Shown here one piece after another: positions 21,207-26,710 of a stretch of 64,000 nt of DNA. Origin of the DNA: a bacterium (lineage in GTDB: Bacteria > Electryoneota > JAOADG01); contig OY820579.1 in the NCBI GenBank assembly GCA_963681965.1, forward strand, positions 704,001 through 768,000. Reading direction: 5' to 3'. Numbering within the stretch: position 1 is the first letter of the stretch; each line of letters starts with the position of its first letter. A program made the position numbers and the translations under genes. Below the pieces are notes generated by a model. It worked only from the letters and a program-made list of their open reading frames with translations. It made no database searches and had not been told where the DNA came from.

Positions 21207-21525
21207 TCCTGTCTCCCAATCAAATGCATCTGATCTACCGAATTATCGACATGTTCGTCGAAATGCAATCGGTGTGTAGTGATAATGTAATACCTATCCA
21301 CAGACAAACAATTCAACTTTTCCAGTGATACAAATATTCGACCAACTCTTATAAATTCAAACTCATCTAAAAATTCGCAATAATGGACAAATATGCTTGA
21401 ACATATGTCCAAAAATAATACAACTATTTGTGATTACAAATAATTATTGTTAACTTTAAGTTCCGATATTTGCTTTGTGTGACGATGTCCAATCTTATGG
21501 CAATGGCTCTTTATTGAGGTGTAGT

Positions 21526-22938
21526 ATGCGAATTTCATTTCGATTTTTCCTCATTACCCTGCTCGGTCTGGCAACAATCGCGTTTGCCGACCCGTGGGAA
21601 TTTAGACTCGACGGAGTCGAAAGTGCTGCCCGCAATATCAATTTTACCAGTGATGGTGGCTATATCATTGCCGGAACCGGTGCGATGTTTAAACTATCAC
21701 CGACCGGATCGTTACTTTGGTCAAGCCCGATCTCCGGCGCCGAAGCCAAACAGACGTGGGACGGCGGATATGTGCTGGTTGGCAATAACAGTTTCATGTC
21801 GGCAATGATTGCCCGGACCGATTCGACCGGCGACACGCTCTGGACCCGGTTGTATGGTCGTTCCCGCACTCGCGCCGATTTTTACAATGTCTTTCCAGCT
21901 CCCGATAGTTGTATTTTGGCGACCGGCTATCACAACGGATCCGCGTATTCACCCTCCGGTGGCAATGGCTGCCTGGTAAAATTCGATCAAAACGGCGACA
22001 CGCTGTGGAACCGCAGTTACGCTTACGGTCAGGAAACCCGTTTTTTTGCTGCTGTGAAAGTGAGCGACGGCTTTCTTATGGCTGGTCGAACGAAAGCGGT
22101 CGGCACTGAAAGCGATTTTAATTTTGTTGCAGTTCGCACAAACGATAATGGCGACACGATCTGGACCGGTATCTACGGTCGCACCGGCAATCAAATCTGT
22201 AACGGTGTTACCGTTTGTTCCGATGGTGGTTTTTTACTTACCGGTAGCACTGATATCACTACTGGCGGTGGAACCACCAAAGATCTCTATTTAGTTAAAA
22301 TAAGTTCTACCGGTGCGTTTCAGTGGGAACAACATTACGGATCCGAAATGTTGGATGAAGTCGGCGAAGCCGTTGCTGCAGATCCGAATGGTGGTTATAT
22401 CGTTACCGGATATGCCGAATTGTCGGGTGTTGCGCCGATGGTTGTGTCACTAATGAAAGTTGATTCGGCGGGCGCTGCTGTTTGGACTTCTGGCTTCGGA
22501 ACAAACTTGTACAATGCCGGTCTCGCGGTGCGGACGCTTAGCGATGGTTCGATTTTGTGCGCTGGATTGCGCGAAGCAAATTTCGTTTTCTACGGCGATG
22601 GCGAGGCGTGGGTGGCTTGTACCAATTCCGACGGTTCGCTTTCGACGCTAGATCCTGCTCACCGCGCATTACCAGTATCTGTCGCGCTGCAACCAGCTTA
22701 TCCGAATCCATTTAATTCGACAACGGTAGTCCGCTATTCACTGCCGCGACAGACGCATGCGCGGATCGAATTATTCAATCTTTATGGTCAACGGGTAGCG
22801 ACATTGCTCGATCGCGATCACGCTGCCGGAAACTATTCGTTATCACTCGACGGCGAGGGATTGGCGGCGGGTACTTATTTTGTGAGGCTTCATACGCCTA
22901 ACCAGAGCGCGACTCAAAAGGTGGTTTTGCTCAAGTAA
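21526..22938 (+). CDS. Secreted beta-propeller-like repeat protein with C-terminal sorting-like domain
   Basis: ATG at 21526 after GAGGT RBS; signal peptide; DGGY and GDTLW repeats; AYPNPFN...KVVLLK. Confidence 0.85.
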   Translation: MRISFRFFLITLLGLATIAFADPWEFRLDGVESAARNINFTSDGGYIIAGTGAMFKLSPTGSLLWSSPISGAEAKQTWDGGYVLVGNNSFMSAMIARTDSTGDTLWTRLYGRSRTRADFYNVFPAPDSCILATGYHNGSAYSPSGGNGCLVKFDQNGDTLWNRSYAYGQETRFFAAVKVSDGFLMAGRTKAVGTESDFNFVAVRTNDNGDTIWTGIYGRTGNQICNGVTVCSDGGFLLTGSTDITTGGGTTKDLYLVKISSTGAFQWEQHYGSEMLDEVGEAVAADPNGGYIVTGYAELSGVAPMVVSLMKVDSAGAAVWTSGFGTNLYNAGLAVRTLSDGSILCAGLREANFVFYGDGEAWVACTNSDGSLSTLDPAHRALPVSVALQPAYPNPFNSTTVVRYSLPRQTHARIELFNLYGQRVATLLDRDHAAGNYSLSLDGEGLAAGTYFVRLHTPNQSATQKVVLLK

Positions 22939-22995: not shown

Positions 22996-23160
22996 GTATG
23001 GGTGGACCCTCGTGTCCGCCCATTTTGTATCTAGACCCGCTTTGCGAATACATCGTTCGGCTGGTGGCGCAGGCCTCCGAGCCTGCGATTTTTTTGTAGT
23101 ACTGCCGATCTCCGAATCGGCGATTCGCTTCGTTCCCGTAGGTCAGAACTTGTTCTGACC
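22996..23160. repeat. Intergenic cluster of four different REP-like palindromes
   Basis: GTATGGGTGGACCCTCGTGTCCGCCC (22996), GGTGGCGCAGGCCTCCGAGCCTGCG (23063), GTAGTACTGCCGATCTCCGAATCGGC (23096), GTAGGTCAGAACTTGTTCTGACC (23138). Confidence 0.75.
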
Positions 23161-23300
23161 ACCTCCTGTGTCTCAAATAGAAAACAATTAACGCAGTCTT
23201 AATCCTGCGGCTACAAATTCTCCTTTCACTCATCAATTTGTTTGTAAATACTCTCCATCCACATTATTATTGATATACCACCTGTCCGACCGGAGGCGCC

Positions 23301-26090
23301 ATGAATCTCCATCATCGTTTTCTAAATATATCTCTGCTTGCATTCGCGACGACGCTTATTGTCATCCTCACGCTTCTTCTTCCGCAATCGTCTCATGGCG
23401 TATCGGTGCAATCGACCCGATTGCCGCATCCGTTCCAATTCACCGAGAACAAGGGGCAATGGGATTCTGCGGTCGTGTATAAATGCGAGGTGCAGCGCGA
23501 TGGCTTCACCTGGTTCCTTGAGCGCGATGGTGTCACCCTCGTCACGAGCTTAATTGATTCCTCAAAAATGATAGACGCCAGTAGGGGCGGGCTCCCATGC
23601 CCGCCCATCGATCCTTTTTCCAGTAGGGGCGGACCCCCGTGTCCGCCCCCAAGCGGCAACGATGTTGCCGCCGCAGGGGCGTATGGCATACGCCCTGATC
23701 ATGAATCCTTTCCATTAAAATCTCACGCCCTCAAATTCAAATTTGTCGCATCTGGAGGTGGCGCAGGCCTCCGAGCCTGCGAACGTAGGGGCGAACCACA
23801 AAGTGCTCGCCGAAGGCAATCGCATTCGCCCCTATCCGCTCAAGATGCACCAACCAATCTGGGCGCGTCCGCGCCCACAGGGCGAATGCGATTCGCCCCT
23901 ACAGAAAAATATTCGACACAAGAGGATGTCGGAATAAATTCCGACCTTCGAAAATACACTTGCGCGAAATGGATTGATGCACAGGGGGAATTATCGTGGC
24001 ACAACAATTATTTCCTCGGGAATGACTCATCGAAGTGGGCACCGGATTGCCGGAACTTTACGCGCGTAGTGTATCATGATGTCTGGGATAGCATCGATGT
24101 CGAGTGGTATGAGAGCAAAGGTCATCTCGAATTCGATTTCGTGTTTCATCCCGGTGCCGATCCGAAACAAATCAAAATGGTATGTGAGGGATTGGATGCG
24201 CCAGTAGTAGGCGGAGGACGGACACTCTTGTCCGTAGACTCAATTATTTCTGTCACAAACAGGAGTCGGACAGGAGTGTCCGACCTCCTCTTGTCGAATG
24301 AACTGTCACTCATGACCTCCCTCGGTGAACTCCAGATGTCGATTCCGGGAGCCTACCAATCCACTGCGAATGGAACTCGCGGAAACGCTGTCACGGCACA
24401 ATTCAGACTCGTGTCAGAAAATGTCTTCGCCATCGATTTGCCGAATGGGTATGATGCATCGCAAACGCTTCGAATCGATCCGCTGGTGTATTCAACGTAT
24501 TTGGGGGGATCAGGAAACGACAACGTTTCTGGAATTTGCGAGGGTGGAGTCGATGAAGTGATCGTTACCGGTCAGACTAGTAGTAACAACTATCCTACAA
24601 CAGTTGGAGCAATCCAGGGTGGCTTGATGAGTACCTATTGGGATTGCATTATCACAAAATTGAATTATAACACATCTACACTGATTTATAGTACCTATTT
24701 ATCGATGGGCGTTTGGACTCAGGGAATTGGAATCACTAGCGATGGCAGCAATGGCGCGATTATCTGCGGTGCCTGTTACAACACTATTACTCACGTCGAT
24801 GTGATGTATGCAAGAATCAACTCAACCGGTAATCACTTGATATATAGTGGAACATTAATCGGTGGTTCCGACGATTACGGTTATGCCGTTTGTGGCGATG
24901 GGAATGGGGGGGCGACACTCACCGGTCAGGCTACCAATGGATTTCCCCATACATCAGGTGCATATGATACACTGTTTGGTGGTAGTAACGCATTCGTGAC
25001 AAGAATCAATAACGATGGAGTTATCGTATATAGCACTGCTCTTACAATGTCGACTTGCTACGGAATCGCGAGTGACAATAATGGTGGTGTATTTGTCACA
25101 GGTGGTGCTGGCCGCAATTTTCCGACAACACATGATGCTTTTGATACCACCTATAATGGTGGTTGGGATGCTTTCGTCACGCATTTGAATAGTACTGGTT
25201 CTGCTTTATTGTATAGTACTTTTCTAGGTGGATCAGGTAATGAAAAAGCTTCTGGAGCCGATTGTGATGCATCTGGAAATGTATTCGTAACTGGCTATAC
25301 TTCAAGTGGTAATTTTCCAACAACAATAGGGTGTTTTGACTCATCATATAATGGCGGGCAAAATGATTGTTTTATCACAAAAATCAATCTTATGGGTTCG
25401 CAGTTAGAGTATAGTACTTATTTCGGTAGCTCTGGTGGTGACTGGGGTCAAGCAATTTGTTTGGATGATTCTGGTGGATGTACGGTTACAGGTTATACCG
25501 ACAGTACAGATTTTCCAACTTCAACTGGTGCTTTCGACCGTACGTACCATGGTCGTGGCGATTGTTTTATTACTCATCTGAACAGAAATGGGTCGATGAT
25601 TTCTTATAGTACATATTTGGGAGGCTCTATCAATGATATGGGGTACGGAATAATGAAGAGTGGTTCTGATAGAGTCATAGTAGCTGGAATAACCAATAGT
25701 CCTGAATTTCCACGCACAACGGGAGCTTTTGATACAGTTTATCATGATAGTTATGACTGTTTCATTACTCAACTTAGATTGACTCCAGATTCAAATGAGG
25801 CTGTAATAGAGAATCATTTGATACCAACAGGTGTTTCTCTCTCACATAACTACCCGAATCCATTCAATTCCTCCACCACGCTCTCTTATTCGCTTCCGCA
25901 CGCTTCGATGGTTGAGCTGAAGTTGTTCGATCTCACCGGTCGCGAAATCTTGACGCTCGTAAATCAAAGACAGAATGCGGGTAGTTATCGCATTCATTTC
26001 GATGGTTCTCATTTAACATCAGGTACCTATTTTCTCCGCATGAAAGCTGGTCAATTTTCTCAAACTCGAAAGATTGTCCTGCTCAAATAA
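23301..26090 (+). CDS. Secreted SBBP (beta-propeller) repeat protein with C-terminal sorting-like domain; contains in-frame REP-like insertions
   Basis: FTENKGQW, NYFLGND..KW, RIDPLVYSTYLGGSG, repeated YSTxLGG and FPTTxGAFD, NYPNPFN...KIVLLK. Confidence 0.88.
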   Translation: MNLHHRFLNISLLAFATTLIVILTLLLPQSSHGVSVQSTRLPHPFQFTENKGQWDSAVVYKCEVQRDGFTWFLERDGVTLVTSLIDSSKMIDASRGGLPCPPIDPFSSRGGPPCPPPSGNDVAAAGAYGIRPDHESFPLKSHALKFKFVASGGGAGLRACERRGEPQSARRRQSHSPLSAQDAPTNLGASAPTGRMRFAPTEKYSTQEDVGINSDLRKYTCAKWIDAQGELSWHNNYFLGNDSSKWAPDCRNFTRVVYHDVWDSIDVEWYESKGHLEFDFVFHPGADPKQIKMVCEGLDAPVVGGGRTLLSVDSIISVTNRSRTGVSDLLLSNELSLMTSLGELQMSIPGAYQSTANGTRGNAVTAQFRLVSENVFAIDLPNGYDASQTLRIDPLVYSTYLGGSGNDNVSGICEGGVDEVIVTGQTSSNNYPTTVGAIQGGLMSTYWDCIITKLNYNTSTLIYSTYLSMGVWTQGIGITSDGSNGAIICGACYNTITHVDVMYARINSTGNHLIYSGTLIGGSDDYGYAVCGDGNGGATLTGQATNGFPHTSGAYDTLFGGSNAFVTRINNDGVIVYSTALTMSTCYGIASDNNGGVFVTGGAGRNFPTTHDAFDTTYNGGWDAFVTHLNSTGSALLYSTFLGGSGNEKASGADCDASGNVFVTGYTSSGNFPTTIGCFDSSYNGGQNDCFITKINLMGSQLEYSTYFGSSGGDWGQAICLDDSGGCTVTGYTDSTDFPTSTGAFDRTYHGRGDCFITHLNRNGSMISYSTYLGGSINDMGYGIMKSGSDRVIVAGITNSPEFPRTTGAFDTVYHDSYDCFITQLRLTPDSNEAVIENHLIPTGVSLSHNYPNPFNSSTTLSYSLPHASMVELKLFDLTGREILTLVNQRQNAGSYRIHFDGSHLTSGTYFLRMKAGQFSQTRKIVLLK
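23581..24288. repeat. About 12 REP-like palindromes in three clusters inside the coding sequence
   Basis: Clusters 23581-23695, 23754-23947 and 24213-24288; GC-rich hairpins mostly led by GTAG/GGAG/GCAG; 23757-23782 is identical to intergenic 23063-23088. Confidence 0.8.
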
Positions 26091-26303
26091 TCAGTCCCAA
26101 CAGTTCACTCTCGACGATGTTTCAAGGTTAAACAACCATGAGTAGCAGGAGGATATTTTTGCATTGCCGGTACCGTGAACTGCGGTCTTTCGATACCTGC
26201 GTGAGGCGCGCTAAAAAAATGAAAACGGTACGAGATAGCTCCGTTACGAGTTCTCATACCGTTCTCAATATGTATTTGGAGGTGTTATCACCTCATTCGA
26301 AAA

Positions 26304-26380
26304 TGGTCGGGGAGACTGGATTTGAACCAGCGACCCTCTGCTCCCAAAGCAGATGCGCTACCGGGCTGCGCTACTCCCCG
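26304..26380 (-). tRNA. tRNA-Pro (TGG), CCA encoded
   Basis: Reverse complement CGGGGAGTAGCGCAGCCCGGTAGCGCATCTGCTTTGGGAGCAGAGGGTCGCTGGTTCAAATCCAGTCTCCCCGACCA forms a cloverleaf. Confidence 0.97.
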
Positions 26381-26411
26381 AAAAAGGGTATTCAACAAAA
26401 TATCAAGCTGG

Positions 26412-26665
26412 GAACCAGCGACCAAAGAAACTCCCGAAAGCAGATGCGCTACCGGGCTGCGCTATTCCCCTGAAAAACAGGTGTTGGGTGATAGGGCTTG
26501 GGGGCTGGGAAAGAACTAAAAGATCGAACCAGCGTCCCTCAGAAAACCCCGAATGCTGATGCGCTACCGAGCTACGCTATTCCCCTGAAAAACAGGTGTT
26601 GGGTGATAGGGTTTGGGGACTGGGAAAGAACAAAAGATCGAACTAGCGTCCCTCAGAAAACCCTG
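26412..26665 (-). repeat. Tandem 114-bp repeats (about 2.2 copies) containing degenerate 5' fragments of tRNA-Pro
   Basis: GAAC(C/T)AGCG anchors at 26412, 26526 and 26640; GATGCGCTACCG.GCT.CGCTA.TCCCC shared with the tRNA. Confidence 0.88.
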
Positions 26666-26710
26666 ACAGCAGTTGTTTGATTACACCGCTTCACCAATTA
26701 TCAGCGAGTG

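Follow-up and report, generated by a model that had tools for sequence, protein, structure and literature searches.

The 64,000-nucleotide stretch of bacterial DNA analysed here (the window) corresponds to positions 704001-768000 of a genome available as a single contig of 4.24 Mb with 47% GC. It harbours an open reading frame (ORF, 23301-26090, plus strand) encoding an SBBP/DUF7948 protein, whose N-terminal domain is interrupted at three sites by runs of hairpins akin to repetitive extragenic palindromic (REP) sequences, which are read in frame with the gene. Positions given below are those of the window unless they are marked as genome positions.

The window gene and its three insert segments

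According to the ORF listing, the gene is open over 929 codons with neither stops nor frameshifts, hence the claim of one intact reading frame, made earlier from the letters alone (the sequence-only reading), holds. Profile matches to DUF7948, the SBBP repeat and the type A sorting domain of the type IX secretion system (T9SS) all lie above the curated cut-offs, whereby the DUF7948 match (PF25778, 134.3 bits, cut-off 27, E 8.2e-39) is split into two stretches, the SBBP repeat scores 29.4 bits (PF06739, cut-off 20.5, E 7.5e-7) and the C-terminal sorting domain is placed at residues 851-926 by two profiles (PF18962, 42.9 bits, cut-off 27, E 6.3e-11; TIGR04183, 44.4 bits, cut-off 23, E 1.2e-11). 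The N-terminus appears, judged by eye only, to possess a hydrophobic, signal-peptide-like stretch. The features considered are the following:

23301-26090, plus strand: SBBP/DUF7948 gene, 929 aa, intact ORF
23565-23714, plus strand: insert site 1, aa 89-138, 50 aa
23581-23606, 23623-23649, 23653-23671, 23673-23695: REP units of insert site 1
23585-23606, 23626-23649, 23653-23671, 23677-23695: site 1 palindromes from the inverted-repeat scan
23715-23747, plus strand: conserved beta-strand between inserts 1 and 2, 11 codons
23748-23951, plus strand: insert site 2, aa 150-217, 68 aa
23757-23781, 23785-23834 (50-nt composite), 23860-23877, 23880-23902, 23928-23947: units of insert site 2
23762-23781, 23786/23834 (composite arms), 23860-23877, 23880-23898, 23928-23945: site 2 palindromes from the inverted-repeat scan
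24210-24296, plus strand: insert site 3, aa 304-332, 29 aa
24213-24288: inverted doublet of site 3 (type A), resembling a REPIN (a REP doublet forming a hairpin)
24218-24235, 24265-24284: site 3 palindromes from the inverted-repeat scan
23001-23022, 23063-23088, 23139-23162 (within 23001-23162): intergenic REPs directly upstream of the window gene

The three segments, the limits of which were drawn by paralogue alignment, contain 11 palindrome units and sum up to 147 aa. Every palindrome that the sequence-only reading had listed in its three clusters was recovered by the scan at the place given for it, whereby two details changed: the sequence described as a degenerate unit near 23815 does exist but is not separate, as it belongs to the 50-nt composite starting at 23785, whose right arm it forms (23825-23834), and the palindrome of the fifth unit has 7-bp stems, a small correction. 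All listed palindromes are short, GC-rich and imperfect, their stems measuring 7-10 bp and their loops 1-6 nt. The tag GTAG is found at 23581, 23623 and 23785 and CTAC at 23899-23902, while GCAG at 23673 is a variant tag, as is GGAGG/CCTCC, borne by the site-3 doublet. The arms of this doublet (24213-24234 and 24267-24288, 22 nt each) are 91% complementary and lie 32 nt apart, and its two inverted REPs form one longer hairpin, as is characteristic of REPINs.

Kinship with extragenic REPs and RAYT-like genes

The relation of these units to the repeats of the genome was derived from a whole-genome census of hairpins with perfect stems of at least 8 bp, at least three identical copies being counted as a family. 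The census yielded 1974 hairpins, 630 of which fall into 45 families, and these repeated hairpins are considered mostly extragenic because 185 of them (29%) lie inside open frames of at least 200 aa as compared to 83% of 3000 random points. The DUF7948 loci, at 2.3% of the genome, hold 110 of the 630. Within the window, eight hairpins of repeated families were counted, six residing in the 0.73-kb insert stretch and one directly upstream of the gene, and the clustering of hairpins in the window gene exceeds chance.

At the level of single units, the proposed 26-nt identity between 23757-23782 and the intergenic copy at 23063-23088 was confirmed; this unit has 39 exact copies in the genome and the neighbouring intergenic unit 23139-23162 has 59. 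The proposal that the palindromes recur throughout the genome applies to seven of the 11 units, for which 42-127 copies with no more than two mismatches were counted, mostly outside the gene family, but not to the remaining four, i.e., the unit at 23653, the 50-nt composite, the unit at 23860 and the site-3 doublet, which are essentially confined to the family. These four, among them all of cluster 3, look inherited by gene duplication and not captured by the window gene, and the idea of capture by this gene was overstated in that respect. Longer blocks have counterparts elsewhere as well: 117 nt of insert 1 are 90.6% identical to an intergenic array at genome positions 915258-915374 and 94 nt of insert 2 are 91.5% identical to intergenic genome positions 3821112-3821205. 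As a dispersed unit, the site-3 doublet was not found in the genome, since 19 of its 21 BLAST high-scoring segment pairs (HSPs) lie inside the gene family, the two outside being a 55-nt match of 87% identity and a 26-nt match. Beyond the DUF7948 family, REPs deep inside real ORFs were encountered in a single RAYT-like gene (for REP-associated tyrosine transposase) among the frames inspected (19 of the 75 open frames with repeated hairpins, plus 3 out of 10 in which hairpins sit deep inside); in the other long frames inspected, either the hairpins are located upstream of the probable start or the frame itself is spurious.

Four ORFs with HuH and Tyr motifs were classified as RAYT-like, each being flanked on both sides by one REP family, which differs from ORF to ORF (GGGAGGGC/GGGCGGGC, GTCGGAAT, GGTCAGAAC and GGGCGTATGGCAAT). 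GTAG adjoins these flanking copies and three of the four families also occur in the insert loops. A genome search with the Pfam profile Y1_Tnp (PF01797, cut-off 23) found two of the four genes (30.3 and 26.8 bits), the others being obtained by ORF inspection and tblastn. The notion of RAYT genes flanked by the REP families of the loops finds support at the level of RAYT-like genes, at least four of which are flanked by such families, several unit families lying beside different ones. One GTAG REP-flanked RAYT-like gene (genome positions 345516-346359, plus strand) contains, between its HuH and Tyr motifs, four 84-nt units in tandem, every one of which holds a REP hairpin and is read in frame.

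Further repeats were observed genome-wide. Eleven open frames of 307 aa each carry one repeated hairpin, and a 23-nt hairpin is present in 13 copies, 11 of them in one orientation; our guess is that the eleven frames represent an insertion sequence carrying the 23-nt hairpin. A perfect palindrome of 30 nt has 10 genome copies.

Recurrence at fixed sites, reading frame and selection

DUF7948 is encoded at 28 loci of the genome, of which 19 are intact paralogues (853-1036 aa) with a near-identical N-terminal domain, and about 25 paralogues have the same three loops loaded. As the sequence-only reading had anticipated, the three variable sites coincide in the alignment whereas their loads differ, comprising REPs, REPIN-like doublets and an element like a MITE (miniature inverted-repeat transposable element). 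In the 19 paralogues, the variable segment ranges from 20 to 77 aa at site 1, from 16 to 123 aa at site 2 and from 5 to 67 aa at site 3. Site 3 exists in five states, namely the type A doublet of the window gene (15 paralogues by alignment, 14 by motif label), a GGAGG-TGGGAC doublet (2), a GTAGG-TCAGG doublet (1), an array (1) and an empty site (1), and every occupant type has extragenic relatives. Six paralogues carry a MITE-like cassette of ~200 nt in frame at site 2 (e.g., genome positions ~3838500-3838900), which is not present in the window gene, shows 15-nt inverted ends in the alignment and gives 205 HSPs outside the gene family. At another locus of the same genome (L002), one repeated hairpin was seen in frame, and a REP-like peptide is present at site 1.

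Broken paralogues were considered as evidence of damage by REPs and dismissed as such, as in L009, one of the two examined, the break stems from a point nonsense change in the core and not from a REP, and L014 alone is frameshifted inside an insert, i.e., within its site-2 cassette. In L014 a cost of insertion is visible. The breaks of L025 and L027 lie in insert regions, as located by BLAST ranges only.

Homologues were compared in a genome of the same genus (G001), in one of another genus of the same family (G003) and in three more distant ones of the same phylum (G018, G008 and G014). In eight full-length homologues of G018, one of G008 and locus L001 of the genome under study, DUF7948 positions 1-214 are contiguous within 660-750 nt and the loops at the three sites are short, whereas the window gene and most paralogues match in two to three pieces, so the segments are insertions relative to these homologues, as had been proposed. 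One DUF7948 copy of G014 matches in two pieces. In G001 and G003, in-frame REPs and other repeats occupy the same three sites with differing content, the insert at site 3 of G003 reaching roughly 230 aa as estimated from translations. The GTAG-GGGCGG REP pattern occurs in 7 copies in G001 and 39 in G003 and was not found in G018, G008 and G014, with reversed-pattern controls likewise at 0, the comparison comprising five genomes which are not independent. A close ortholog of the window gene was not found in G001, where the best match has 79% identity over ~210 nt, and for this reason recent gains and losses are not datable from that genome. In the alignment, the otherwise uninterrupted DUF7948 of L036 (G008) contains a short Gly/Arg-rich, REP-peptide-like stretch at site 1, a hint of one lone insertion in a lineage further removed.

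Among the 19 paralogues, the core blocks share 77-88% DNA identity, with a proportion of synonymous differences (pS) of 0.39-0.61 and a ratio of nonsynonymous to synonymous proportions (pN/pS) of 0.07-0.30, values by which the domain core is judged to be under purifying selection. The same holds for the strand at 23715-23747 (pN/pS 0.07, pS 0.47), and as this strand lies between inserts 1 and 2, its conservation argues for use of the frame through insert 1. Extragenic REP arrays are not stop-poor: over 75 nt, 681 of 1212 frames are open, and over 141 nt just 15 of 72; considering that all 19 genes are open, this points to selection for the open frame. It was weighed against this background whether the inserts could stay untranslated, be it that the genes are decaying, that ribosomes bypass the hairpins or that the segments are removed from the RNA. 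Such an account could draw on the fragmentary loci of the family (~7 of 28). However, 850-1040-aa frames are retained in 19 paralogues across inserts of up to 123 aa, any indel leaves the frame intact with a chance of 1 in 3, and the purifying selection on core and inter-insert strand as well as the rarity of open frames in long extragenic arrays are hardly expected from it; moreover, bypass would make open, in-frame inserts needless. Untranslated inserts are hence regarded as very improbable.

What is read from the inserts differs from what is read from the core. Diversity at the three codon positions amounts to 0.11/0.08/0.35 for the core and to 0.35/0.32/0.41 for insert columns outside the stems, whereby the latter values are used only for their missing periodicity because non-homologous cassettes share columns. 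One REP family yields different peptides, two in all, depending on whether it sits at site 1 or site 2, and one cassette is read in two frames by means of compensating +1/-1 indels. On the evidence of these sequences, the insert peptides are free of constraint. Residues 31-420 were modelled with AlphaFold (31-row alignment, mean predicted local distance difference test (pLDDT) 69, predicted template modelling score (pTM) 0.67); the model describes the core as a beta-sandwich with a pLDDT of 80-96 and assigns to the three inserts a pLDDT below ~55 and almost no secondary structure. Low-pLDDT stretches comprise model residues 57-108 (site 1, no strands), 120-188 (site 2) and 273-300 (site 3), and strand E109-119 between inserts 1 and 2 is modelled with a pLDDT of ~94. 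The inserts would thus be disordered loops of a protein for which secretion is predicted, in agreement with the earlier description of them as loops of a secreted protein. A Foldseek search against the PDB gave no matches at E <= 0.001; a wide search with VIA-align pointed, at a middling Z of 8-9.2, to the YidC periplasmic domain and to beta-sandwich modules of the galactose-mutarotase type from glycosidases and lyases, matches that may serve as a lead on the fold.

These data also bear on the suggestion that REP turnover is useful to the host, in that it would vary the exposed loops of a protein family that is secreted or surface-located and thereby alter ligand range or allow escape from phages or predators. 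The loops do vary greatly among the 19 paralogues, the core protein sequence being nearly identical, the proteins bear a T9SS sorting domain and the loaded-loop pattern persists in two genera. Yet insert columns without a codon-position signal, identical DNA read in different frames and inserts predicted to be disordered are not what such a use would lead one to expect, and neither switching machinery nor strain-level variation was seen, the contigs of four public sequencing runs being uninformative here as they break at repeats, with joints mostly reflecting paralogues; their long pieces cover just the unique 3' part (~24560-26200), with zero differences. Host-useful hypervariability is hence considered quite unlikely.

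With regard to the surroundings of the gene, its upstream neighbour (21475-22938, plus strand, 487 aa) likewise carries a C-terminal T9SS sorting domain (E 5.3e-10) and is without repeated hairpins. A tRNA-Pro (TGG) is located at 26304-26380 on the minus strand, and within 26304-26680 the ORF translations downstream of it repeat a tRNA-like peptide motif about three times, which suggests degenerate copies of a tRNA 3' half or a tRNA-derived repeat.

Interpretation and comparison with known systems

Starting from what is established, namely that the segments are inserted, that they recur at the same sites, that they are kin to extragenic REPs, that the core is under selection and that the peptides lack constraint, we favour with a probability of roughly 0.7 that the segments are selfish insertions tolerated in permissive loops, inherited by gene duplication and turned over, with selection acting for the open frame only. 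The gene product would be a working, T9SS-secreted beta-propeller protein, the N-terminal DUF7948 beta-sandwich of which offers three permissive surface loops. These would be filled by GTAG-type REPs and REPIN-like doublets belonging to intergenic, RAYT-flanking families, and in sister genes by the MITE-like element, all inserts being translated as disordered filler. The load may have been seeded early in this bacterial family and subsequently copied as the gene family duplicated, whereby units would be gained, lost or swapped beside resident ones and whole blocks exchanged with other REP arrays. Selection would act on the domain core and on the open frame and exempt the insert peptides. Mobility driven by RAYTs, preferential insertion beside existing REPs and neutrality are parts of this proposal that we infer. 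Taken together, tolerated selfish DNA with turnover fits at least as well as the array-like capture and useful hypervariability suggested by the sequence-only reading.

Several findings weigh against this account. The two RAYT-like proteins scored with NF047646 reached 68.8 and 78.9 bits, just below the cut-off of 80, and RAYT activity, like the mobility that it would drive, is presumed from sequence. The domain tree is star-like, with 2 of 16 inner branches starred, and owing to this poor resolution independent insertion and recombination are indistinguishable. Among public sequencing runs, five were listed, none of which is recorded as RNA. Furthermore, nearly every loop in every paralogue is filled, and such a concentration on one gene family may call for more than tolerance. 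A further departure concerns the arms of the site-3 doublet, where in 14 paralogues a minor allele occurs in at least two rows at just 1 of 60 columns, as compared to 25 of 71 columns in the flanking codons (Fisher p 3.6e-7 versus the arms) and 7 of 19 in the spacer. Near-invariant arms are not predicted by plain neutrality and imply either constraint at the level of the nucleic acid or recent homogenisation.

The first of these possibilities corresponds to a cis-acting role, in which some of the hairpins and above all the site-3 doublet would be kept as mRNA structure, as RAYT binding site or as joints for recombination between paralogues. It would account for arms that are frozen including third codon positions next to a varying spacer and varying flanks, for the near confinement of type A to the gene family (19 of the 21 HSPs, as given above) and for combinations of cassettes at the three sites that are mosaic on the poorly resolved domain tree. 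However, 5 of the 19 paralogues carry other doublets, an array or nothing at site 3 and are apparently unharmed, G001 and G003 have other content there, recent homogenisation could yield the same pattern, and the domain tree is, by eye, broadly congruent with C-terminal similarity, so shuffling was not rampant. A cis-acting role is therefore held to be rather unlikely. A wider version, assuming that the three loops are maintained REP landing pads, that the site-3 doublet is a domesticated cis element (mRNA structure, RAYT site or recombination joint) and that turnover diversifies ~25 T9SS cargo proteins, is speculative and likewise judged fairly improbable.

The family represents an experiment of nature on the amount of random, hairpin-encoded peptide that a folded domain is able to bear: up to ~200 extra residues in three loops, in ~25 paralogues and more than one genus, with the core still under strong selection. 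REPs, REP doublets and a MITE-like element share one coding niche here, and doublet arms conserved at the nucleotide level inside a gene could make REP function, be it selfish or cis-acting, testable. For annotation, the family serves as a warning, as split DUF7948 matches and low-complexity stretches are real coding sequence in this case and not errors of assembly or frame.

Among known arrangements, the bacterial interspersed mosaic elements (BIMEs) of E. coli are extragenic REP clusters, in which several REPs lie side by side in mixed orientation. The loops resemble them in their packed REPs of mixed orientation and in multi-unit blocks repeated elsewhere, and differ in that the clusters are read as protein. 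With REPtrons, REPINs and RAYTs (PMC3733652; Quentin et al. 2018, PMC6006769), the genome shares RAYT-like genes beside their own REP family and inverted REP doublets, whereas the scored RAYT-like proteins remain below the NCBIfam cut-off and the site-3 doublet is not dispersed outside the gene family. For tnpAREP genes of subclass 2.4, REPs in frame inside the gene were described (PMC6006769), and the RAYT-like gene at genome positions 345516-346359 matches that arrangement as reported there. Rickettsia palindromic elements (RPEs) are elements of ~150 bp with a conserved peptide per family, which were found in frame in unrelated genes and judged fold-compatible (PMC10969869). Like them, the units described here are palindromic mobile repeats in frame within genes; unlike them, they are REPs of 18-50 nt that gather in one gene family and are translated in several frames, and an element of 100-150 bp with a conserved family-specific peptide was not found among the window units.

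The sequence-only reading took RPEs for the coding exception, but they are not the only one, as intragenic GTAG/CGTC REPs are documented in several species (PMC3733652). Di Nocera, De Gregorio and Rocco (2013) describe such REPs as mostly extragenic, some being in frame in genes for known proteins, where they occur as singles, dimers and clusters, the largest of which encode 43-82 aa, and propose neutral insertions in flexible linkers or loops; in recB of two Xanthomonas species, different REPs are found at about the same site (PMC3733652). The cases given there comprise one or two insertions per gene, spread over genes that have no relation to each other and often serve DNA repair, whereas the window gene holds 11 units of several families in three fixed loops, and this loading recurs at the same three loops in ~25 paralogues and across two genera. 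A limited literature search, judged by titles and the beginnings of abstracts, did not find a published description of a paralogous family with fixed multi-REP loops. The phenomenon as such is already in print; what is new is its scale and its recurrence at fixed sites, which render the family described here an extreme case of it.

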